Positions 4,873 through 18,560 are shown, counted from the stretch's first letter. The stretch: DNA of 64,000 nt from an uncultured Gammaproteobacteria bacterium (GCA_963714975.1 CAVQQD010000002.1:800001-864000), one strand, 5' to 3'. Numbers and translations are program-made. The notes: generated from the sequence alone by a model not told the origin.

Positions 4873-7170
4873 ATGCCGAAGAACCAGGCCAAATCCGAAC
4901 AAATTGAGGCGGCAATCAAGGAAATACTCGAGAGTGGGGGAGAGCCCACCCTTGAATCTGCACGTCAAATGCTATCCATTAAAAATCTCACTACGACTGG
5001 ACCCCGATTTTATAAATATTTATACAGCAATCATCTATACGATGGCAGATTAAAACGTTCTGCAAAAGAAGCGCTGGGCGAGAAAGAAACAAAAGAAAGA
5101 ATTGGTGAACTAGAAAAAACTCTTTCCTTGGTAAAAGCTACCTTAGAGTCGACAGCGGATGGCCTGTTAATTCTTGATCGGGATGGAAAGCTAGTAAGCT
5201 GGAACCAGAAATTTGTAGAGATGTATCGGTTTCCTCCAGAAGTTTTGGAGACACGTGATGAGCGAGTTGCACTGCAATACATTTTAGATCAATTAAGTGA
5301 CCCGCAAGGTTTTTTTAATTCTGTAGCAAAATTATACGATCATCCAGAGGCAAAAGGAGAATTAGAAGATTTACATTTTAAAGATGGTCGGATTTTTGAG
5401 CGTTATTCACAGCCACAATTAGTAGGCGAGCAAATTGTAGGGCGGGTTTGGAGTTTTCGTGATGTCACGGAGCGACGAAAACAAGAAGAGCAGCTCCGTT
5501 TGCGTGAACGTGCCATTGAGGCTAGTACCCACGGCGTCATTATTACAGACAACACCACTCATCATAATATTTTATATGCTAACCCGGCTTTTGAACGTAT
5601 TACCGGCTATTCATTTTCTGAGATAAAAGAGCACCAGTGTTTTGTATGGTGCAAGGATGATCAACAACTACCCGCGATCCAAAATATCCGTTTGGCACTC
5701 AAAGAACAGCGTGAAGATCAAGTGATTATTCTTAATCACAAGAAAAACGGCGAGGAATTTTGGAGTGAAATTAATATTGCTCCAGTGCCTGATAGTACTG
5801 GTAAAGTTAACCATTTCGTTTGGATAATCAATGATATTACTCAGCGCAAAATCATGGAGGATAAATTATCCCACCAGGCGACCCACGATTATTTAACTGA
5901 ATTACCAAATAGATTATTGCTCCGAGATCGATTACAGCAAATTATTTTGAATGCAAAGCGATTAGAAGTAATTGCTTCTGTGTGGTTTATTGATTTAGAT
6001 CGTTTTAAATTAACCAATGATAGTTTGGGTCATGGTGCAGGTGATAAATTGTTACAAGTTATTGCTGAACGTTTAGTGAACAGCGTCCGTGAAACTGATA
6101 CGGTATCTCGACTTGGCGGGGATGAGTTTGTCGTAGTTTGTTTATTACAAAAAAATGAGTTTGATGCTATTCCATTAGTTCAAAAAATCTTAAAAAAAAT
6201 TTCTGAGCCTGTGCCAATTGATGACCGTATTATTAATATTACTGCAAGTATCGGTATTAGTTCTTATCCAAGTAATGGTGAAGATATTGATACCTTAATG
6301 CGACATGCTGATATTGCCATGTATCGTGCGAAAGATTTAGGGCGTGACAATTTTCAGTTTTTTACTCCCGAGATGAATGAGCAACTAGATAAACGTTTAA
6401 TGTTAGAGAGCGATTTACATCAAGCGTTAGAACGAAGTGAATTTGTCTTGTACTATCAACCTTTAATTTGTTTAAAGACGGGAACTATCAAGAGCTTTGA
6501 AGCATTGATTCGTTGGTTTCATCCTGAGAAAGGCTTGATACCTCCCTTAGAATTTATTCCTTTTGCTGAAGAAACCGGCTTAATAGTGCCCATTGGTGAG
6601 TGGGCCTTAACAGCAGCCTGTAGAGACTATCAGCTTTTTCGGGAAAAAATATCCACACCATTGCACATAGCTGTGAATGTATCAAGTCAACAATTTCGTA
6701 GAAATAATTTTATTGAAGTTATTGATCAGATCTTATCTAAGACTAAGATGCTCGCCAGCTGCTTAGATATTGAAATCACTGAAAGTATTTTAATCGAAAA
6801 TGTTGATAAAACCATGCTTACTTTTAATGAATTAAAAACCCGAGGGATCAATCTTATTTTAGATGATTTTGGTACCGGCTATTCAAGTTTAAGCTACTTA
6901 AAGCGCTTACCATTAGATAAACTAAAAATTGATAAATCTTTTGTAGATGGAATTGGTACTCATACCAATGGACCCGCCATTGTTCAGACCATTATTTCCA
7001 TGGCTCATGTATTAGGACTCAGTGTTGTGGCAGAAGGAGTAGAAACCAAAGAGCAATTAGAATTTTTGAAAGCCCACAATTGTGATCAAATGCAAGGCTT
7101 TTACTTTAGTCGGCCACTACCCCTGCAAGAAGCACTGAAATTATTACAACCAGAAGAAGTTTTAGTGTAA
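4873..7170 (+). CDS. PAS-PAS-GGDEF-EAL c-di-GMP cyclase/phosphodiesterase
   Basis: Two PAS/PAC domains; RETD I-site five residues before an intact GGDEF; EAL, DDFGTGYSS, AEGVE and QGFYFS intact. Confidence 0.95.
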   Translation: MPKNQAKSEQIEAAIKEILESGGEPTLESARQMLSIKNLTTTGPRFYKYLYSNHLYDGRLKRSAKEALGEKETKERIGELEKTLSLVKATLESTADGLLILDRDGKLVSWNQKFVEMYRFPPEVLETRDERVALQYILDQLSDPQGFFNSVAKLYDHPEAKGELEDLHFKDGRIFERYSQPQLVGEQIVGRVWSFRDVTERRKQEEQLRLRERAIEASTHGVIITDNTTHHNILYANPAFERITGYSFSEIKEHQCFVWCKDDQQLPAIQNIRLALKEQREDQVIILNHKKNGEEFWSEINIAPVPDSTGKVNHFVWIINDITQRKIMEDKLSHQATHDYLTELPNRLLLRDRLQQIILNAKRLEVIASVWFIDLDRFKLTNDSLGHGAGDKLLQVIAERLVNSVRETDTVSRLGGDEFVVVCLLQKNEFDAIPLVQKILKKISEPVPIDDRIINITASIGISSYPSNGEDIDTLMRHADIAMYRAKDLGRDNFQFFTPEMNEQLDKRLMLESDLHQALERSEFVLYYQPLICLKTGTIKSFEALIRWFHPEKGLIPPLEFIPFAEETGLIVPIGEWALTAACRDYQLFREKISTPLHIAVNVSSQQFRRNNFIEVIDQILSKTKMLASCLDIEITESILIENVDKTMLTFNELKTRGINLILDDFGTGYSSLSYLKRLPLDKLKIDKSFVDGIGTHTNGPAIVQTIISMAHVLGLSVVAEGVETKEQLEFLKAHNCDQMQGFYFSRPLPLQEALKLLQPEEVLV

Positions 7171-7190: not shown

Positions 7191-7625
7191 ATGGCAAATT
7201 CATTAATGCAGGAAGTTCAAGTAATTCCTAGAAATGAAATACCGGCTATTTATTCGGTGAATCAAACAGGCATAGAACATAGAATTGGTGAATTAAGAGA
7301 TTTTCAATGGCATCCCTTATTAAAACAATTCATTCCAGAACAACTAGGCATTTCTTTTAGTTGGACTCGATTGCGAGGGGATGAAATTTTGCAGCCTCAT
7401 TTACATCCTGAGCAGTCAATTATTATCATTGTAAAAGGAAACGGCCGATTATTAGGTCAGAAAAATCTACCATTGACTGAAGGTGATACTGTGGTGGTTC
7501 CTCCTGGTTGTGCCCACGGTTTTCAGGGTGACGGGGGGGAAGGTTTTTGTGCTTTATCCATCCAATTTGCTGGTGGTCTTTATACGCATCCAGAACAAGC
7601 ACGTGTTGCATTTGTGGAGAAATAA
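7191..7625 (+). CDS. Stand-alone cupin domain protein
   Basis: PHLHPEQS and GDTVVVPPGCAHGF cupin motifs. Confidence 0.88.
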   Translation: MANSLMQEVQVIPRNEIPAIYSVNQTGIEHRIGELRDFQWHPLLKQFIPEQLGISFSWTRLRGDEILQPHLHPEQSIIIIVKGNGRLLGQKNLPLTEGDTVVVPPGCAHGFQGDGGEGFCALSIQFAGGLYTHPEQARVAFVEK

Positions 7626-7627
7626 AT

Positions 7628-8866
7628 ATGCTGACAAGGAAATACACCGCTATTGGCGCCGTTGTTTTCGCATTATGCCCGCAATTAGTTTTGGCTAGCA
7701 ATTTTCAATTTTTTTCGGGCATTGATTATAATAACCCCGCGGATTTAACTTTTTTAGTTCAAGATACTCAAATTATTTTAGGATTCGAGTATTTTCCTCC
7801 TGCACCCCATGTCACGTTTAAAGGCAGTGTAATGGTACCCGATCCTACTGGTATGGGTAATAATGTTGTGACTACAGGTACAGCCAAAAATATTGGGAAT
7901 TCCAGCTTTCCCTATGGGCGCATTGCAAAACGACTATCTAAACAATGGGTCGCTAGTTTGGATGTGACAGAGCCTTTTAAGTCGGACATTATTTATCCTG
8001 GAGATTCAATTGTAAGATATGTGGTAACCGATTCTATCATTCATTCTGTCGATGTCGCGCCTAGTGTGGCTTATCAATTTGGAGGGGGCTTATCAAATTT
8101 GGCAGTGGGTTTTGGATTGGATGCGATGTATATGAAAATTGCCTTGAATTCGAAGTACCCCTCTTTTCCTATACCTCCTAATATACCTTTTGGTGCTGGT
8201 CCTGATGCTATTTTTACTAATGGAGCATCAAGTTGGAACTATGGTTGGCACGCAGGAGCCATTTATCATGTATCTAAATCAACCATTTTGGCCGCGAGTT
8301 ATTTTTCAGCCATAAAACAAAAATTTTCTCACGGCGAAAGTACTTTTACTGGATTCCCAGACAGCCACGATTTTGCTACGAGTCTTAATTTACCTGCCAC
8401 AAGCAATTTTAGTCTTACTCAGTTTATTGGCGAAAAAATGATTGTTTTTGCACAGGCAAGTTATTCACAGTGGCATCGTTTGCAGCAAACAATATTGTAT
8501 AATACTGCCGGCCCAGCTTCAGAAATTGTGCTCAATTTTCATTACCGAAATACCTGGCGCTATGGTTTAGCTGGGCGCTATAGTCTCACGCCTGACCTAT
8601 CTTTAGGTGGCATCATTTGTTATGACTCTACTCCTACCAATAATGCTGATAGGAATTTGGCATTACCAGGAGCTAATTTGTTTATCTTAGGTGGGTCAGC
8701 TGAATATAAATTGACTAAGGAATTAGCTCTACAATTAGAATATGGTCATGCATTTACCATTAATGTACCTCTGAATAATGTAGAGGAGGGCTCTGGCATT
8801 ACCACCGTGGGTAATGCCAGCATTTACGGTAATATATTCGGGGTGCAGTTGTCCTTTAATATCTAA
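7628..8866 (+). CDS. FadL/OmpP1/TodX-family outer-membrane transporter for hydrophobic molecules
   Basis: True start is ATG 7628 (signal peptide). NNPADL hatch motif, LNLPA, YRNTW, YDSTP..DRNLALP and a C-terminal beta-strand. Confidence 0.85.
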   Translation: MLTRKYTAIGAVVFALCPQLVLASNFQFFSGIDYNNPADLTFLVQDTQIILGFEYFPPAPHVTFKGSVMVPDPTGMGNNVVTTGTAKNIGNSSFPYGRIAKRLSKQWVASLDVTEPFKSDIIYPGDSIVRYVVTDSIIHSVDVAPSVAYQFGGGLSNLAVGFGLDAMYMKIALNSKYPSFPIPPNIPFGAGPDAIFTNGASSWNYGWHAGAIYHVSKSTILAASYFSAIKQKFSHGESTFTGFPDSHDFATSLNLPATSNFSLTQFIGEKMIVFAQASYSQWHRLQQTILYNTAGPASEIVLNFHYRNTWRYGLAGRYSLTPDLSLGGIICYDSTPTNNADRNLALPGANLFILGGSAEYKLTKELALQLEYGHAFTINVPLNNVEEGSGITTVGNASIYGNIFGVQLSFNI

Positions 8867-9003: not shown

Positions 9004-10590
9004 TTACACTAAGGTTTCTGCTTTCTTTTGATTATACAAGTGCTGCAAGTATTGATATTGAGAAGGCAGTTTTTCTGCTAATTCACCTGACTTGATTTGG
9101 ATTTCTTGTATAAGTTGTTCGCCTCTTTGCATAATATCATGGCGAAAATTAAGAATAGGCATAGCAGTATGGGGTAATTGACCGACGCCACATAAAATAC
9201 ATTGGTAATTAGTGTTTGTCCAAAAGGTTTCAAATTGAGCTGCGAAAGAGCTATACAGCTCATTATCGGGTTGTGTGCTTTGTCGAATAGGGAGCCCAGC
9301 TTTTTGACGATTCAATGTTTGCTGTAAATATTCAGGCATTTTTGTTTCGTACTTATTAGCCTTCCAAAATGGTGTGTCTTCACGTTGCGCAGTTTTAAAG
9401 TGCATGATAATAAAATTTTTCACATCTTCAACCATATAGGATATTTTTTGATTAAATTTATCCCGATAGACTGGATCAATATTTTTATTGGGGAAATTTT
9501 TAATTAATTGATAGAGTGCTGCGTAAATAAAGTAAATTCCAGTAGATTCCAGAGGTTCCAAAAAGCTACTAGATAGCCCAATGCCCACGCAATTGTTTAC
9601 CCAGGCATGGCGGCGTCTACGCGATTGAAATTTAATGAAACGAATTTTTGCTTGCTCGCCGCGTTTGCCAAAAAATGCTCTCACTTCTTTTTCTGCTTCA
9701 TCGTCGCTAATAAATTGGCTGGAATAGACATAGCCATTTCCTGTACGATAAAATAACGGAATTTCCCATACCCATCCCGCCTTAAGAGCGGTTGCTGAAG
9801 TAAAAGGGCGAATACCTTTAATTTCAGCAGATTCTTCAAAATTAATCGAAATTGCACGATCGGTTAATAAGCTTTCTTCAAATGAAACTATGGGCTCATG
9901 TAGAGTTTTTTCAATTAAAAACCCATTAAACCCTGAGCAATCAATAAATAGGTCTGCAGCATATTTTTTTCCAGATTCACTTACCACGCATTTAATATTC
10001 CCTTGTTCATCTAATTCAACATGCGTCAAATTATCAGACACATAATTAATTCCATGCTTAATCGACCATTTTTGTAAAAAATTAGCTAGTAATAGTGCGT
10101 CAAAATGGTATGCATAATGCTGTACTGGCGTGCCATTTAAAAATTTAGGAGATTTATTGAGTTCCCACGCTTTAGCAGTCGAAAAGCAGGCATGGTCCAT
10201 GGGAATATTAAAATTCTCTTCTAGTCGTTTTTTAATCCATATATGAGTTAATGGCACTTCGTCAATCGTTGGAACTTCACCGAAATTATGATGATAGCTA
10301 TCACCTCCAGTTTCAGGAGGGATTTTCCAATTAATAAATTTTACTCCCAGTTTGTAAGTGGCTTGACAACTTGGCATCCATTCTTCTTCCGAAAGTCCCA
10401 AGTGATCAAAAAATTCTGTTTTTATTGTAGGGATGGTAGCTTCTCCTACACCAATTCTAGGAACAGAGGGAGACTCGATAACAGTTATATTAACTTTAAA
10501 GCCTAAAGATTTTCCGATGTAAGCAGCAGACATCCAGCCGGAGCTTCCACCACCAACAATAATAATATTCTGAATTTTTTCTTGTTCCAT
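9004..10590 (-). CDS. Flavin-dependent tryptophan halogenase (PrnA/RebH-like)
   Basis: GGGSSG, GVGEATIP, catalytic Lys in ATYKLGVKF, WVWEIP (WxWxIP), FLEPLESTGIYFIYAALYQL. Confidence 0.95.
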   Translation of the reverse strand: MEQEKIQNIIIVGGGSSGWMSAAYIGKSLGFKVNITVIESPSVPRIGVGEATIPTIKTEFFDHLGLSEEEWMPSCQATYKLGVKFINWKIPPETGGDSYHHNFGEVPTIDEVPLTHIWIKKRLEENFNIPMDHACFSTAKAWELNKSPKFLNGTPVQHYAYHFDALLLANFLQKWSIKHGINYVSDNLTHVELDEQGNIKCVVSESGKKYAADLFIDCSGFNGFLIEKTLHEPIVSFEESLLTDRAISINFEESAEIKGIRPFTSATALKAGWVWEIPLFYRTGNGYVYSSQFISDDEAEKEVRAFFGKRGEQAKIRFIKFQSRRRRHAWVNNCVGIGLSSSFLEPLESTGIYFIYAALYQLIKNFPNKNIDPVYRDKFNQKISYMVEDVKNFIIMHFKTAQREDTPFWKANKYETKMPEYLQQTLNRQKAGLPIRQSTQPDNELYSSFAAQFETFWTNTNYQCILCGVGQLPHTAMPILNFRHDIMQRGEQLIQEIQIKSGELAEKLPSQYQYLQHLYNQKKAETLV

Positions 10591-10626
10591 AAGGGGTACT
10601 CCTATTTTGATTCGAAAATAATGGCA

Positions 10627-10719
10627 CGTTGTCCCTGCACGGAAGCAGGGATCCAGTCTTCAGGATGCAAAAGCTTCACGTCCTTGTTGCCTGGATCCTG
10701 GCATCCGTGCCAGGACGAC
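10627..10719. repeat. CGTC-type palindromic repeat
   Basis: GTCCCTGCACGGAAGCAGGGATCCAG ... CTGGATCCTGGCATCCGTGCCAGGACGAC; homologous to 25923-26016. Confidence 0.8.
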
Positions 10720-11785
10720 AGCGGTGCGTTAAGACATTAATTACTCTGTTGTTTTCATTTTTGTTTCCTAAGGTAATTCTAGCCGTGTTATGAAGCTCCT
10801 CAGGGCGCCACAGTACTTTAATGTTAGCATCATTAAAGCGATCAATTATTGTATGAGCATCAGTGAATTCGATGCAGATAAAATTAGTTTCACTAGAATA
10901 AATTTTTTTAATTAATGGAGAATTTTTAATTGCGTCTATAACCCGTATTCGTTCTTGTCGTATTTGTTCAATTCCATGATGTAGAAGTTCTGGATGATTC
11001 AGTTGTTGTTGTAACATATTCTCAATTGGACCCGGCATGTTATATGGAGGCTGGACCCGTTTCAGCGTGTCTATAATTTTTTCATTAGCAATTAATGCGC
11101 CAACCCGAAGGCTTGCCATTCCTAATGCCTTAGAACAAGTTCTAAGTATAATCAAATTAGGGTATTCTAATATTTTATTTAAATAGGAAGGCTTTTTTGA
11201 AAATTCGACATAAGCCTCATCAATAATAATTAGATTTGAAAATTTATCTAAAATGTTGATTATATTTTCGGGATTAATTCGCGATCCTAATGGATTATTG
11301 GGGTCACACAGTAACAAAAGTTTTGCCTTGTGGTTAATTATTTTTGTAATGGGTAATTGTGCTCCGTCAAGTTCAAGGTCGAACAGAACGGGGTGAATTC
11401 TATATAATTGAGCCCAATGGATAAAGGCACTAAAAGTAGGTGGAGTTAGGATTACTTCGTCCAGATTGGGTTCAGCAAATGCCTTAAATACTAGGTCTAA
11501 TGCATCGACAGCACCAGTAGAAAATAAAATATTACGAAAATTAAGTGGATTATCCTTAATAGGGAGGCTTTGAGTTTTTTGATCAAGTTTCCAAATAAAA
11601 TCTAGGTAATGTTGTTTAATACTTCTTTGATGAAGATCAGGGTAATGTTTAAAGGTCCCACCGAATGCATTAGTATTATTATTTAATAGCAACTGTGCGT
11701 TGTCAAAAACTTGATTTTCAGCTAGCGGTCCGGGGAAAGATAATTTTTTAACATTTTTTCTAGAAAGTTCATGAGCATTACTCAT
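10676..11785 (-). CDS. HisC-like class I/II PLP aminotransferase (outside any his operon)
   Basis: CDPNNPLG, DEAYVEF, LRTCSKALGMASLRVG (PLP lysine), ARIT. Confidence 0.88.
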   Translation of the reverse strand: MSNAHELSRKNVKKLSFPGPLAENQVFDNAQLLLNNNTNAFGGTFKHYPDLHQRSIKQHYLDFIWKLDQKTQSLPIKDNPLNFRNILFSTGAVDALDLVFKAFAEPNLDEVILTPPTFSAFIHWAQLYRIHPVLFDLELDGAQLPITKIINHKAKLLLLCDPNNPLGSRINPENIINILDKFSNLIIIDEAYVEFSKKPSYLNKILEYPNLIILRTCSKALGMASLRVGALIANEKIIDTLKRVQPPYNMPGPIENMLQQQLNHPELLHHGIEQIRQERIRVIDAIKNSPLIKKIYSSETNFICIEFTDAHTIIDRFNDANIKVLWRPEELHNTARITLGNKNENNRVINVLTHRCRPGTDARIQATRT

Positions 11786-12728
11786 ATTTTTTCTCCTTAT
11801 CCATTAATGAGTAAACTCTTGAGGAAAAAGCGTCTACCATTTTCCAAGATTCTTCCAATACTTCATTGATACGTTTTGCTGTGTGTAAATTTTCTATTAA
11901 CAATGGTTGTTCGTCATTTAAATTTGTTTTTATTAGGTTGAATGTTGTCGGAAATTTTATGTTAGTAATTTCATAAGATTCGCAAATATTAATAAATAAG
12001 TTAGTAACAGGTTTTGTGATTAAATGATTAATGGCTATTTTTTCCATTTGATCTAAAATGAGTGTTTGATAAATGAACCATTCTGCTAGAGATTCTAAGG
12101 TCAAGTCAAAAGATTTTTCTTCTATTGTCTGTCTTGAGAGGAAAGGTTCTTGACATTTGTTAAACCAAATTTGTATAGCATTAGAAAATATTTCTCGTTT
12201 TTTTAAATTATTTAACAGTCCAGATTTAATTTTTTTAAAGAGAAGATTAGAATAAAATTGATTTATATATTTTTGGTTTTTTTTAAGTGTTTGTGTCAAA
12301 ATTAATTTTTGCTTTGAGTTTGTTTTTGCTGTTGTATAAGTATCTTGATAAAACTCATTGCCTAATTGGATGCATACACTATGCAAACCTTTTGGGCCAG
12401 CAATGAAGGAGTGAGATTGTCCAGCTGGAATTAATACTGTATCACCTTCTTTTATTTTAGTATAAGAGTTTTCTCCAATAAATTTACCACTTCCAGAAAT
12501 AAACAATAATAGATGTGGAAATAAATTTTCATGGAGCGGCATAGTATGATCGGGTTTTAAATATCCTATGTTAATGGATAATGCAGAAATAGATGGTAAA
12601 ATTTTATGTAAGGATTCGTGCCATGTCAAATCCCTAAACTGTCCTATATGGTGGATTTTTCCTTGAAGTTCTATCCATTCTACAGGTGCTATATCCATTA
12701 ACTTTAAATGAATAATTTTTTTGGTCAT
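11778..12728 (-). CDS. Cupin plus degenerate heme-oxygenase-like domain fusion
   Basis: Cupin GDTVLIPAGQSHSF. The C-terminal helical domain aligns with 12753-13460 (WFIYQTLILDQMEK vs WFCYQMFVLDNIEK) but lacks the His/Glu ligand motifs. Confidence 0.75.
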   Translation of the reverse strand: MTKKIIHLKLMDIAPVEWIELQGKIHHIGQFRDLTWHESLHKILPSISALSINIGYLKPDHTMPLHENLFPHLLLFISGSGKFIGENSYTKIKEGDTVLIPAGQSHSFIAGPKGLHSVCIQLGNEFYQDTYTTAKTNSKQKLILTQTLKKNQKYINQFYSNLLFKKIKSGLLNNLKKREIFSNAIQIWFNKCQEPFLSRQTIEEKSFDLTLESLAEWFIYQTLILDQMEKIAINHLITKPVTNLFINICESYEITNIKFPTTFNLIKTNLNDEQPLLIENLHTAKRINEVLEESWKMVDAFSSRVYSLMDKEKKYE

Positions 12729-12752
12729 GTGGAACCTCCAAAGATTACTCCA

Positions 12753-13789
12753 TTAATCTTTTTGATCAGATAAAACCGCAATACGATTCAGCATGATATT
12801 TAGCATCTCCCAGCCTTTATCGATAACCTGGTGCAATCGTCGATAAGTAAGCGCATCTTGACCCTTAAGTAATTTTTTCCCCATTTGTGCATGTTCATCA
12901 TCTCCTTCCCCGTGAATATCGAAATAATTTGAATGAACATTTTTTCCTACTTTTTCCTTAGCCCAGTTTCCATAATAAGATCCTCCTGTTTCAAGGATTA
13001 AGTGGATTAGAGCAGTTTTTTCTATATTATCTAATACAAACATTTGATAGCAAAACCAACTAGAGCTTGCATGTAAAATAGGATCTTTAATAACATGCTT
13101 GTTTTCACGATTTGCAAGTAATTCATTATGCCCAAATTCTTCTTGAAGATGTTTTAGAAATAGTGGTATGTATGTTTTGTCTTCACAAGTTGCTTCTCTA
13201 CTAAACATAATGAGCTGAAAATAATCAGAAAATACCTGGACGCAATCTAAGAATCGTTGTTTTTTAAGAGAACTTAAGTGCGTTTTGTTTTTCAGAAGAC
13301 TGAAAAATTCATTGTTCAAGGTTTTTTTTAAGCGTAATTGATTGTGCAATAATAATCCATCAAAGGTAAGCGCATATGATTTATAATTATCGACAGGTGT
13401 TTTGTTTTTTTTAAATGTTTTGAGATTAAGTTGTATTTGTATGCCTTGTAGCCCTTCCACACTAATTTTATTGAAGCCATAAGGGCATTGCTGTGGGATC
13501 AGTAGTATGTCACCAGCACAGATTTTCGGATCTTAGTGCCTATAAGATTAGCTGATCCCTGATATATATAAATCAGGGTACCTAGCGGTTCAGTTCTAAT
13601 TGCTAATTCATTATTTTTTTGGCCAAAAATCCAAGAAACATTAAATTGCTTGTTATTAGGTAATAATTTTTTAAGGATAGCATGATGATGCAGAGTTTTT
13701 ATATTTCTTATACTTGGAATTTGTTCTTGATGAATAATTTTTGATTTTTCAAGCGTTACACTAGTCATTTTTTCCATAAACAACTCCAT
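12753..13789 (-). CDS. Cupin plus heme-oxygenase-like diiron oxidase (HDO) fusion, split by a 1-bp frameshift near 13525
   Basis: ORFs 13499-13789 and 12753-13460 join if one A is added to the A-run at 13523-13526, giving KICAGDILLIPQQCPYGF. HDO-type ligands HLQEEFGH, HLILE and HGEGDDEH (HxxxDxxH). Confidence 0.8.
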
Positions 13790-13829
13790 GTGTAGTCGTA
13801 ACTACTTACGCCATAGCCAGCTCAGTTCC

Positions 13830-13870
13830 GTCGTCCCGCTCCCGCGATCAAGTCGCGGGAGCGGGACGAC
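13830..13870. repeat. Nested CGTC-type hairpin repeat
   Basis: GTCGTCCCGC-TCCCGCGA-TCAAG-TCGCGGGA-GCGGGACGAC, a perfect hairpin. Confidence 0.8.
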
Positions 13871-13877
13871 AATAATG

Positions 13878-15164
13878 CTAGTAATAAATATATTTTTTTT
13901 CTTTTTTATATAATAAATTATACAATGGTGAGGTGATCATTGTCGTAATAATTGCCATAGTAACTAATATTGTAAATAAAGCGTGAGTTATAATGTGTTG
14001 TTGGAGCCCTATGTTGAGCACTATTAGCTCCATAAGGCCTCTTGTGTTCATGAGAATTCCTATTCCTATAGAGTCACGCCAGTTTATACCGGTAATTTTA
14101 GCTGCAAACATTGTGCTTAACCCTTTTCCTAGTATAGCAGTTAATAAGACGACTGCTAAAAGGCCTAACAAATCTATTGAATTTATTAAATTGATTTGTG
14201 TGTTTAGGCCTGAAAATACGAAAAATATGGGCAGTAATAATGAATTAGTGACATGTTCGAGTTTTTGTTTTATCTTAATACTCAAATCTCTAGCTCTAGG
14301 GATAATAATCCCAGCTATAAAAGCACCAAATACCGAATATGTTCCAGCATGATCAGTAAACCAAGAGCAAATCATTAACCCTGCTAAAATTGTTCCTAAT
14401 GTTGCATTAGAGTTTAATTTAATTTTATCGAACACGGAAAAAAATTTTCCTAGAGGTTTTTTTATTAATAACATAACCACTATAAACGACGTTGTTCCGA
14501 GTATAGCTAATAATGCAATGTTTATATTGCTTTTTAGACCACTTAATAAAATGGCGAAAATAATCCATGCTAACAAGTCACCTAATGTACCAGCAGACAA
14601 GGCAATTAATCCCAGTTCGGTATGTACCGCATTTTTTTCCTCTAAAATGCGTGCTAGTATAGGCAGAGCAGTAATTGAAAGTGCAGTACCAAGAAAGATA
14701 CTTTTAGATATATCAGAAATTGATTCATTGAATAAATTAAGCTGACTAGGTAAATATAGAAATAATACTACGCCCAATAAAAATGGGATACATGTTCCTA
14801 TGCTGGCAATAAAAGCTGCTGATTTGTATTGATTTTTTAAAATTTTAATATCAAGTTCTAAACCGACCTGAAACATATATAATACAATTCCTATCTGACT
14901 TATGGAAAATAATATTGACATTGATGGATTGGGGATCGTCTTATGGTTTGCCAGCAAGTATTCTGTAGTTGGGAAAATCCAGCTATGTAAATCAGGGAAG
15001 AGTAATCCGAAGAATGAGGGTCCTAATAAAATTCCGGCGACCATTTCACATATTACATTAGTTTGTGAAAAAAATTTATTACCAATATAACTGATAGCCC
15101 TGCAAAAAAATAAAATTATAGCAAGTTGGATAAAAAGTCTTAGTATTAAATCAGAATAAGACAT
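13878..15164 (-). CDS. Cation:proton antiporter (CPA2/KefB-like, of the type found in halogenase clusters)
   Basis: EMVAGILLGPS, SITALPILARIL, FGAFIAG, LLPIFFVFSGL, LMNTRGLMELIVLNIG. Confidence 0.92.
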   Translation of the reverse strand: MSYSDLILRLFIQLAIILFFCRAISYIGNKFFSQTNVICEMVAGILLGPSFFGLLFPDLHSWIFPTTEYLLANHKTIPNPSMSILFSISQIGIVLYMFQVGLELDIKILKNQYKSAAFIASIGTCIPFLLGVVLFLYLPSQLNLFNESISDISKSIFLGTALSITALPILARILEEKNAVHTELGLIALSAGTLGDLLAWIIFAILLSGLKSNINIALLAILGTTSFIVVMLLIKKPLGKFFSVFDKIKLNSNATLGTILAGLMICSWFTDHAGTYSVFGAFIAGIIIPRARDLSIKIKQKLEHVTNSLLLPIFFVFSGLNTQINLINSIDLLGLLAVVLLTAILGKGLSTMFAAKITGINWRDSIGIGILMNTRGLMELIVLNIGLQQHIITHALFTILVTMAIITTMITSPLYNLLYKKEKKYIYY

Positions 15165-16742: not shown

Positions 16743-18560
16743 TTATTGTAACGCCTTGCTAATACCATGCTCAGTTTTATCCCAATAATTTGGTTTAAAA
16801 AATAATTGGTATAAGGCCCTATAACTTGCAATCGACATAAATAGCCAGTAAATAGGGGCAGTTAGAGCATGAAAAATTAAATAATATTTTTTCCTACGTA
16901 AGGCAGCAATTAGATTCAGAAGTATCATAATAAATAGCCCACCAATGAAATTAAAGAGTGCAATTTTTAATACTATCGGCGGAAATATTTGTTCTACGTA
17001 TTCTTTGTTAAGAAAAAAATAGCTAATAAAAAATATCCATAGTAACACATTTGCTAAATTACTTACAAAAGTACCTCCTACGAATAACTGAAATCCAATA
17101 AAGCCTTTTGTGCCTATTGCTCGCCATAACTTAAATGGATTACGCATGTGGACAAGGTAGGTCTGCATATAACCTTTGATCCATCGAGAACGCTGTTTTA
17201 TCCAATTATAGAGCTTGGTATTTGCTTCTTCATAGGTGGTTGACGGCATCACTTTTTCTTTATAGCCGAGACGATTAAGACGAATACCAATATCAGCATC
17301 TTCAGATACGTTGTAAGGGTCCCAAGCACGGATTTTTTTTAAACATTCAGTTTTAAAATGGTTGCTAGTACCCCCTAGAGGAATGGGCGCCCCAACATAT
17401 TCTAAAGCTGGAAGCATATAATCAAACCAATAAGAGTACTCGAGAGTGAACATTTTAGTTAACCAATTATCATTTGAATTGTAAAAATTTAAGCAGCATT
17501 GCACGCAGGCTAATTTTTGTTCATTCTCTCCATGGAATACGGCAAGAGCTTTTTTTAATTGCAAAGGATCTGGCTTATCTTCCGCGTCATAAATTGTCAG
17601 ATATTCGCCGCGTGCAAATTTTAAACCATAATTACAGGCCTTTGCTTTAGTCCGTGGAAGTTTATTTGGTATGTAAATGAATTCATAACATCCTGAAATG
17701 TGGAGATTTTTTAATATCTCAATTGTCTCAGTATCGTCGGACTCTAAAAGTATTTTAATATCAAGTTTGTGTTTTGGATAATCTAAATTGTTTAAATTAT
17801 TAATTAAAGCTTTTAAAATTACTTCTTTTTCTTGGTAAAGGGGGATTAAAACAGTATAAATGGGGAGGTTTTTAAGGTTAGCTTCTACTTGAGTAATGTC
17901 GATTTTGCGTGACAAAAACATCCCAATTAATGTTAACAAAAATTTGTAGATTAAAATACCAAACAAAATGAACGACAGAACTAGGTTGAATACGAGTAAA
18001 GTTCGCAGTGGATTAATACTCAAACAACTTACCAGGAAAATAAAAAAAATTGCTAGAAAAATTTTATGCCAGGTGCAAAAGGTTTTTTTGGCACTAAGAG
18101 ATTGATTACTTGTGTTTAATTCTGATATGGATTCCTCGATATAAGTTTCATCAAATACTTTTTGTAATGTCCATAAGATGTCAAATTTAGACGTGCATAC
18201 AATTTCTGCATTTCCACCCCATTCGGCATGAATAAGCTCAAAAGTTTCATCGCTAGGATTGGCTGTGGCAACTACTATTTGATGACCAGTTTGCTTAATA
18301 GGCAATACTAATTGAGAAAAATACATATTCCGTTGCTTAGACAATAGCAAATTTTGATCAATCTCAGTGTGGATTAGGTCAACAAATTTTAGTTGAAAGT
18401 GAGAGGCGATCGCTTGGTAATAGTCTAATGATCGCAGATTTTTTATTGAAAATAAAATATCTCCTAATTTTCCTCCAATTTTTTTTTGCGTTTCCAAGGC
18501 CAATTCAATTTCATCATTGCTTGCGAGTCCCTTTTTTACAAATATCTCACCAAGTTTCAT
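16743..18560 (-). CDS. Processive GT2 glycosyltransferase with an N-terminal MshEN-type c-di-GMP-binding domain
   Basis: N-terminus KLGEIFVKKGL..ALETQKKIGGKLGDIL (tandem MshEN motif); YDAED, SEDAD and QRSRW; several TM helices. Confidence 0.88.
   Translation of the reverse strand: MKLGEIFVKKGLASNDEIELALETQKKIGGKLGDILFSIKNLRSLDYYQAIASHFQLKFVDLIHTEIDQNLLLSKQRNMYFSQLVLPIKQTGHQIVVATANPSDETFELIHAEWGGNAEIVCTSKFDILWTLQKVFDETYIEESISELNTSNQSLSAKKTFCTWHKIFLAIFFIFLVSCLSINPLRTLLVFNLVLSFILFGILIYKFLLTLIGMFLSRKIDITQVEANLKNLPIYTVLIPLYQEKEVILKALINNLNNLDYPKHKLDIKILLESDDTETIEILKNLHISGCYEFIYIPNKLPRTKAKACNYGLKFARGEYLTIYDAEDKPDPLQLKKALAVFHGENEQKLACVQCCLNFYNSNDNWLTKMFTLEYSYWFDYMLPALEYVGAPIPLGGTSNHFKTECLKKIRAWDPYNVSEDADIGIRLNRLGYKEKVMPSTTYEEANTKLYNWIKQRSRWIKGYMQTYLVHMRNPFKLWRAIGTKGFIGFQLFVGGTFVSNLANVLLWIFFISYFFLNKEYVEQIFPPIVLKIALFNFIGGLFIMILLNLIAALRRKKYYLIFHALTAPIYWLFMSIASYRALYQLFFKPNYWDKTEHGISKALQ

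Follow-up and report, generated by a model that had tools for sequence, protein, structure and literature searches.

Enzymes with the heme-oxygenase-like diiron (HDO) fold have been a repeated source of unprecedented amino-acid chemistry, with nitrile, skatole, alkyne, N-nitroso and azetidine formation among their reactions. Two of them, AetD and SktA, the latter 39% identical to the former, act on bromo-tryptophan (bromo-Trp) made by a clustered halogenase (PMC11869266). In SznF, HDO and mononuclear cupin domains perform successive oxidations, and a 2026 review of HDOs presents SznF as the only characterised one with a cupin domain, located there at the C-terminus. In a further system, StnR/StnQ1/StnK3, L-Trp and a modified indolepyruvate are interconverted by an aminotransferase, the keto acid being the compound on which a cupin acts (PMC4742848). 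Here we analyse an operon of an uncultured Gammaproteobacteria bacterium that brings these elements together in a different way: a cupin-HDO gene (cupA-HDO, cupA below), its paralogue cupB, an aminotransferase gene and a tryptophan halogenase gene. It lies within a stretch of 64,000 nucleotides (nt) (GCA_963714975.1, CAVQQD010000002.1:800001-864000), called the window below, in which all positions are counted from the first letter. We argue that the operon probably carries one version of a widespread two-protein oxidase system, working with the aminotransferase on ring-modified aromatic amino acids.

A four-gene operon on the minus strand

The minus strand of 9004-15164 holds five co-oriented genes, exactly at the limits where an earlier sequence-only reading of this DNA had placed them. 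Four of these form the core operon. The first, cupA, lies in two frames: an upstream frame of 96 amino acids (aa) at 13499..13789, encoding the N-terminal part of a cupin (73% identity to residues 1-85 of the intact homologue P0002), and a downstream frame of 259 open codons at 12753..13532, encoding the end of the cupin and the whole HDO domain (82% identity to P0002) and containing a 235-aa open reading frame (ORF). After a gap of 24 nt follows the intact cupB (11778..12728, 316 aa), for a cupin (AraC_binding/Cupin_2, residues 59-130) joined to a ligand-less HDO-like domain. The start of the aminotransferase gene (10676..11785, 369 aa; HisC-family class I/II, PF00155, E 8.8e-35) overlaps the stop of cupB by 8 nt, and a gap of 85 nt separates it from the intact flavin-dependent tryptophan halogenase gene (9004..10590, 528 aa; PF04820, E 2e-150). 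Pfam and PDB matches bear out the identities that had been read from the sequence for the HisC-like aminotransferase with its overlap, for the PrnA-like halogenase and for the fifth gene, an antiporter.

Among the annotated ORFs of 4.8-21 kb we found no non-ribosomal peptide synthetase (NRPS), polyketide synthase, prnB/C/D-like gene or flavin reductase, as the sequence-only reading had noted. A pyrrolnitrin-like cluster was rejected for the lack of prnB/C/D. Promoter and terminator scans gave numbers around background (55 against 47.7 expected and 6 against 8.2 expected, respectively).

Contrasting ligand patterns in the cupA and cupB types

The proteins encoded by cupA and cupB are paralogues (24% identity, E 7e-14). 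An AlphaFold model was obtained for P0002, the intact cupA homologue, from a 34-row alignment (predicted local distance difference test, pLDDT, 88). Residues 14-134 of this model form a cupin (Foldseek E 5e-6; Z ~13) and residues 138-345 match CtCADD (Z 18.4), AetD (18.2), HrmI (17.9), HamA, UndA and BesC (17.2), FlcD (17.0), RohS (16.1) and SznF (13.0). Seven HDOs stand within the top eight structural matches, with Z 17.0-18.4, and the HDO fold called in the sequence-only reading was thus found by structure model and fold search, at Z 17-18 to CADD, AetD, HrmI, UndA and BesC. As judged by this model, the predicted architecture of cupA-type proteins, an N-terminal cupin followed by a C-terminal HDO domain, is confirmed.

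Seven residues of P0002, H214, E218, H221, E267, H293, D297 and H300, are invariant in an alignment of 14 family members, and all seven columns are present in the cupA fragment of the window. They form ExxH and HxxxDxxH motifs, which we take to be the HDO ligand scheme of three His and three or four carboxylates. In cupB, the ExxH segment is gone and the remaining ligand columns carry K, K, N and Q, so that all seven HDO ligands are lost. The cupB model (pLDDT 86) has a cupin domain (Z 13.6) and a C-terminal domain reduced to a heme-oxygenase-like bundle, matching AetD with Z 12.0 over 164 aligned residues. Fold models and ligand columns together therefore uphold the labels 'HDO' and 'pseudo-HDO' given to the two proteins from the sequence.

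The cupin ligand columns differ as well. The cupA type has no His there (K, E and Y in P0002), and cupB of the window has H-N-H, an incomplete site; all three His are kept in most cupB relatives. The cupin metal sites thus appear to vary in the opposite sense to the HDO sites between the cupA and cupB types, and such complementary dead and live sites in neighbouring paralogues make a clean pattern. No Pfam family matched the window's cupA fragments at E<=0.01, and no NCBIfam family matched cupA or cupB.

A large family with three main fused types

A profile search against 1.84 billion representative proteins returned 726 family representatives, mostly of 330-380 aa, at E<=0.001; of these, 381 reach E<=1e-10 and 254 reach E<=1e-30. 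We classified 180 distinct sequences, from the best 150 representatives and the loci examined below. The most frequent pattern (78 of 180), type B, combines a 3-His cupin with all seven HDO ligands. Type A has a His-less cupin with Tyr in motif 2 and all seven HDO ligands (25), and type B', to which cupB belongs, has a cupin and a degenerate HDO (about 30: 27 full-length, the window's own and a few short ones). Free HDOs with all ligands account for 31, and the rest have other or partial ligand patterns.

In a midpoint-rooted FastTree tree of the HDO domain (175 sequences, with class labels read for all but 24 leaves), a B' clade of 40 leaves including cupB received support of 0.99, a B clade of 94 leaves, which also takes in free HDOs, 0.993, and an A clade of 36 leaves including P0002, 0.919. 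Since the B' proteins form one clade, the ligand loss appears to be ancient and passed on within a single lineage instead of the result of decay here and there, with long-branch effects possible.

The best match to the family profile, P0012 (683 aa, from the representative library), has three matched stretches and is apparently a fusion of two cupin-HDO units, which would fit A and B proteins working together.

This sizeable family, of hundreds of 50%-identity clusters, has no functional name. In the protein atlas, only look-alike clusters bear names, all automatic ('cupin domain-containing', 'iron-containing redox enzyme family'). The domain order is not described in the searchable literature: full-text searches, with subscription journals and supplements outside their scope, found no paper on an N-terminal-cupin HDO. 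They also found no described equivalent of the cluster, in agreement with its designation as undescribed from the sequence. One 2026 paper has an extended-data legend in which a gene neighbourhood without a known function is labelled 'haem oxygenase and tryptophan halogenase'.

A frameshift in cupA

The sequence-only reading was right about the two domains of the cupin-HDO; a -1 frameshift at ~13520-13532 that splits its gene had gone unnoticed. cupA is one gene in two frames, the first piece stopping within a cupin strand that the second, shifted by -1, resumes. Both frames are open over 13499-13532, a segment with a run of four A at 13523-13526. Intact homologues spanning both pieces have 341-355 aa; their identity to cupA is 82% for P0002 (345 aa), 70% for P0003 and 51% for P0004 and P0005.

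The frameshift is likely a real mutation, since open frames of the source genome are long (93 of at least 800 aa, the longest of 6164 aa), open frames of at least 120 aa cover 86-88% of each contig, and the long housekeeping genes of the window, YhdP (1325 aa), AlaS and GatA/B, are whole. Alternatively, the operon may be intact and working, and the break may either stem from a single base miscalled by the assembly at the four A or be bypassed by a tolerated, low-level -1 slippage of tRNA-Lys on A-AAA. We consider this possible, at a probability well below that of a real mutation. Both halves of cupA are open, without a further stop, over 96 and 259 codons in DNA of 32% GC; reading on after one -1 step restores, over the junction, exactly the P0002 length; none of the other three genes is truncated; and homopolymer indels do occur in assemblies of this three-contig style. 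However, the many long frames show that indel errors are rare, a run of four A is short for either an error or programmed slippage, and no stimulatory structure was seen. In addition, a second HDO-linked accessory gene of this genome, for a styrene-monooxygenase-like (Smoa-like) flavoprotein at locus L004, is likewise broken in two, with the first 63 residues missing, which suggests genuine decay of HDO-linked loci.

The broken gene is the sole cupin-HDO copy of the locus with its HDO ligands retained. As the frameshift falls in this ligand-bearing HDO, the pathway is probably inactive, at best leaky, in the source genome, and a product in the source organism is doubtful.

Halogenase and aminotransferase

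Among solved structures, PrnA (2apg; E 1.6e-156 over residues 5-519) matches the halogenase along its whole length, followed by Thal and RebH. It retains GxGxxG, WxWxIP and the equivalents of PrnA K79, H101, F103, E346, F454 and W455. The 120 relatives listed all score above PrnA, and the clade includes more than 60 protein clusters at 60-73% identity, whose named sources are metagenome-assembled genomes (MAGs) of Gammaproteobacteria and Legionellaceae, and Legionella oakridgensis. These relatives do not support the view, taken from the sequence alone, that the halogenase cluster is unusual for its lineage.

The aminotransferase scores 227 bits on TIGR01141, below the cut-off of 276.55, and its best PDB match is E. 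coli HisC (E 6.8e-41). The housekeeping hisC of the source genome (332 bits) adjoins hisD elsewhere, at C2:1014287-1016565. Given this true hisC and the score below the cut-off, we rejected a housekeeping role for the operon's gene, whose sequence marks it as a predicted specialised second HisC paralogue.

Recurring partners in related loci

We examined 58 related loci, 39 from species genomes and 19 from metagenome contigs; 30 of the loci carry fused proteins. A metagenome scan with P0002 alone gave no relative, and the 19 loci came from a scan with the family alignment.

In 18 of the 30 fused loci, two family genes are adjacent or flank an aminotransferase gene (L006, L007, L010, L011, L014, L015, L017, L018, L037, L046-L050 and L052-L055). 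An aminotransferase of either of two types is found in 15: HisC-like in six (L009, L012, L013, L016, L020 and L021) and class IV in nine (L006, L008, L010, L019, L046, L047, L050, L051 and L059, the last resembling a second copy of L019). Eight have a Trp halogenase (L006, L009, L013, L021, L046, L050, L051 and L055). A ninth halogenase, in L042 from a Legionellaceae MAG, stands in a consecutive row of free cupin, GST, free HDO and halogenase (64% identity), so that the link between this oxidase family and Trp halogenases proposed from the window alone recurs in 9 of the 58 loci. The halogenases of the eight fused loci belong to three clades (~72%, 42% and 40% identity).

Other partners are also of biosynthetic types. 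The Nostoc, Roholtiella and Aphanothece loci encode an FAD monooxygenase, an O-methyltransferase and an ATP-grasp enzyme; a mycosporine-like or scytonemin identity of the cyanobacterial loci was dropped because methyltransferase type and core genes differ. L020 carries an O-methyltransferase, a pterin aromatic amino-acid hydroxylase, an S-adenosylmethionine (SAM) methyltransferase, an ATP-grasp enzyme of the L-amino-acid-ligase type and an ABC exporter. The Sorangium locus has a hydroxylase, a methyltransferase, a P450 and an O-methyltransferase, and the Mycobacterium locus a P450 and an O-methyltransferase. SAM methyltransferase genes adjoin the family genes in L020 and L037.

L006 and L046, two metagenomic relatives, match the window over a wider range: in both, GGDEF-EAL (57-64%) and FadL (55%) genes are convergent to halogenase (72%), B' and A genes. 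The corresponding plus-strand genes of the window encode a conserved PAS-GGDEF-EAL protein (4873..7170; NCBIfam DibA-like, E 1.1e-161), a stand-alone 3-His cupin of 144 aa (7191..7625; Cupin_2, 36.9 bits, cut-off 27.2) and a FadL/TodX-type outer-membrane channel (7547..8866, homology from ~7634; PF03349, E 4.8e-32). The PAS-GGDEF-EAL protein has 57% identity to its L006 counterpart, and homologues also adjoin the cassette in L046 and L059; L019 has a PAS-GGDEF gene by Pfam. The space between the GGDEF-EAL and FadL genes is occupied in L006 and L046 by additional genes for a free HDO, a class IV aminotransferase and an AMP-ligase, and in the window by the gene for the free cupin only. This free cupin shows the full 3-His pattern (HxH of motif 1 and the His of motif 2); it shares 51% identity with the L006 B' protein in the cupin domain and 43% with the free cupin of L042. 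The core genes are therefore those of the sequence-only reading; its extent for the cluster fell short, the wider locus also including the free cupin, the FadL-type porin and the PAS-GGDEF-EAL gene.

A candidate pathway and its rivals

The gene content, folds, ligand patterns, family size and recurring partners are established by the sequences and models. On this basis we favour, with somewhat better than even confidence, a widespread A + B/B' oxidase system that works with an aminotransferase on ring-modified aromatic amino acids. The A partner would have a cupin without metal ligands and a complete predicted diiron HDO site, and the B or B' partner would pair a 3-His cupin with an HDO domain whose site may or may not be working. 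The FADH2-dependent halogenase would add Cl or Br to the indole ring, either of tryptophan itself or of a closely similar compound, and the HisC-like aminotransferase would interconvert halo-Trp and halo-indole-3-pyruvate. Oxidation of the side chain, in the keto or the amino acid, would then fall to the HDO and/or cupin centres and would proceed through the beta carbon or through C-C cleavage/decarboxylation. Re-amination would yield an unusual amino acid; alternatively, the end product would be a halo-indole, small and hydrophobic, that passes through the FadL-type channel. The recruitment of aminotransferases of two unrelated folds beside the family argues that the keto-acid step is essential.

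A more specific version of this proposal, which we put forward only tentatively, is that A and B' are the halves of one oxidase with two metal centres, generated by duplication and reciprocal loss, the diiron site being retained in A and the 3-His cupin in B', and acting as a heteromer on arylpyruvates from the dedicated aminotransferase. If so, the A/B' heteromer would represent a new route to indole signals or to halogenated aromatic amino acids that are beta-oxidised or have a shortened chain, coupled in the source lineage to a FadL channel and a cyclic di-GMP (c-di-GMP) enzyme.

Several observations weigh against the A + B/B' proposal. At the level of the family, half of the fused loci have no aminotransferase within reach and most have no halogenase, many contigs being short; PF14518 (Haem_oxygenas_2) scores P0002 at 13.4 bits, below its cut-off of 28.9, while 12 of the 14 alignment members match it at E<=1, the best of them at 2e-7; and no sequence-level relation of the cupin-HDO family to AetD or any other solved HDO was detected, its profile giving no match in the PDB at E<=10. 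At the level of the window, cupA is broken and cupB is devoid of one cupin His and of all diiron ligands, so that the local copy may be a remnant. The halogenase has L and Q at the positions of PrnA Y443 and E450, which presumably hold the amino-acid end of Trp; among 124 aligned relatives of its clade, the E450 column is Q, G, L, R, S or A, with E in one. Since these two equivalents are not kept, the halogenase may act on a substrate other than free L-Trp, which we give as a lead only. A PF01613 flavin reductase was not found in the 94%-complete genome by a search that found one in 13 of 14 control genomes; SktB, however, is a canonical-looking Trp halogenase active without a separate reductase (PMC11869266). 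The substrate, the order of steps and the product in the scheme above are inferred.

The main chemical rival is a direct cleavage of halo-Trp by the HDO to a nitrile, methyl or similar product, as in AetD and SktA, with an aminotransferase that supplies or salvages the substrate and cupins that are structural. The joint top rank of AetD among the structural matches (Z 18.2), the use of bromo-Trp from a clustered halogenase by both AetD and SktA, and the lack of metal ligands in the A-type cupin are all consistent with it. We nevertheless regard it as unlikely: no relation to AetD is detected at the sequence level, the 3-His cupin is kept in 78 of the 180 family members and, encoded on its own, also in the window and L042, and the two unrelated aminotransferase folds beside the family point to a keto-acid step.

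FadL/TodX channels usually import hydrophobic substrates. Together with the flanking of the cassette by FadL, AMP-ligase and GGDEF-EAL genes in L006 and L046, and by a GGDEF gene in L019 and L059, this would fit a locus for the import or turnover of an aromatic or indole compound, possibly a signal, taken up by FadL and coupled to c-di-GMP by the PAS-GGDEF-EAL protein. We hold this to be improbable, as the Trp halogenase and, in sister loci, O-methyltransferases, P450s and ATP-grasp amino-acid ligases typify biosynthesis, and no ring-cleavage or beta-oxidation genes are present among the annotated ORFs. Least credible of all, at a very small probability, is that the genes are neighbours by chance without a joint function: the 85-nt gap before the halogenase would allow it, but the other spacings are tight (an 8-nt overlap and a 24-nt gap) and cyanobacteria, myxobacteria, other gammaproteobacteria and metagenome contigs show these combinations again, so that, with one gene set in unrelated lineages, the arrangement is more than chance.

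Under the favoured A + B/B' reading, the family with its aminotransferases, halogenases, hydroxylases, methyltransferases and amino-acid ligases is a testable source of new aromatic amino-acid chemistry. Because the key gene of the window is broken, such tests would better start from the intact sets found in cyanobacteria and metagenomes.

Flanking elements and genome context

The antiporter gene (15164..13878, minus strand; CPA2 cation/proton antiporter, PF00999, E 8.6e-57), which the sequence-only reading had counted in the cluster, has no homologue in any of the 58 related loci. It was therefore rejected as a member and is a neighbour, probably outside the system. A GC-rich perfect palindrome (13830..13875) with 18-bp arms in AT-rich surroundings separates it from cupA. 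The 20-mer core of this element has seven matches in the genome, both strands counted, a repetition by which we regard the palindrome as similar to repetitive extragenic palindromes (REP-like). It is not followed by a T-run and is absent from the list of terminator-like elements.

The source genome has 2.56 Mb in three contigs. Its order has nine species in the collection searched, with the halogenase in this species only, and the nearest relatives of its GatB, at 81% identity or less, are from Gammaproteobacteria MAGs; the designation 'Legionellales-like' was not supported. No link of the genome to any named pathogen was found. At L004 (C3:677327-680920), this genome has a free HDO of the same family, of 251 aa with complete ligands, which adjoins the styrene-monooxygenase-like flavoprotein. 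The same pair is intact in two relatives, L002 and L003, and free HDO homologues are found in Rickettsiella, Aquirickettsiella, Legionellaceae and Pseudomonas records.

Within the window, a low-GC block of ~10-24 kb (GC 0.32-0.37 against 0.42-0.45 around it) includes, at 16743-18560 on the minus strand, a gene for a family-2 glycosyltransferase with an N-terminal MshEN domain, which presumably binds c-di-GMP; it adjoins a gene for a ManC-type GDP-mannose enzyme. This small genome seems rich in NRPS-like genes, none of which is in the cluster, to judge by open frames as long as 6164 and 6059 aa and by numerous matches to AMP-binding domains on C2 and C3.

Comparison with known systems

The halogenase is close to PrnA, RebH and Thal, as judged by full-length alignments (E 1e-148 to 1e-156) and by the conserved FAD motif, WxWxIP, catalytic Lys and Glu and stacking residues. 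It differs from them by its separate clade, by the missing equivalents of PrnA Y443 and E450 and by a setting without prnB/C/D.

The locus shares with StnR/StnQ1/StnK3 of beta-methyl-Trp formation, alongside which the Mar enzymes of maremycin can be placed, the pairing of an aminotransferase with a cupin, and SAM methyltransferases are near the family in L020 and L037. Unlike the proteins described here, StnK3 is a free cupin epimerase, and the Stn pathway has neither HDO nor halogenase.

SznF, like the cupA-type proteins, joins an HDO and a cupin in one polypeptide. Its order is an N-terminal helical domain, a central HDO and a C-terminal cupin, whereas here the cupin comes first and the helical domain is missing. 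The functions are also split here over two paralogues, each with one dead site, and the context is that of aromatic amino acids instead of arginine.

The cupA type and AetD have the heme-oxygenase-like diiron fold in common (for AetD, Z 18.2, root-mean-square deviation 3.0, 201 residues aligned), and in both this locus and the AetD/SktA systems an HDO is encoded beside a tryptophan halogenase, the AetD/SktA substrate being halogenated Trp. Sequence similarity to AetD was not detected by phmmer and a profile search of the PDB including AetD (8twn), with no match at E<=10. A cupin domain, a second, paired paralogue and an accompanying aminotransferase are all missing from the AetD and SktA systems; the SktA cluster has a flavin monooxygenase instead (PMC11869266). 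HDO chemistry on halo-Trp is thus known already, as is the combination of an HDO with a cupin; without precedent in the literature searched are the order of the domains, the pairing of paralogues whose dead sites complement each other and the link to aminotransferases.

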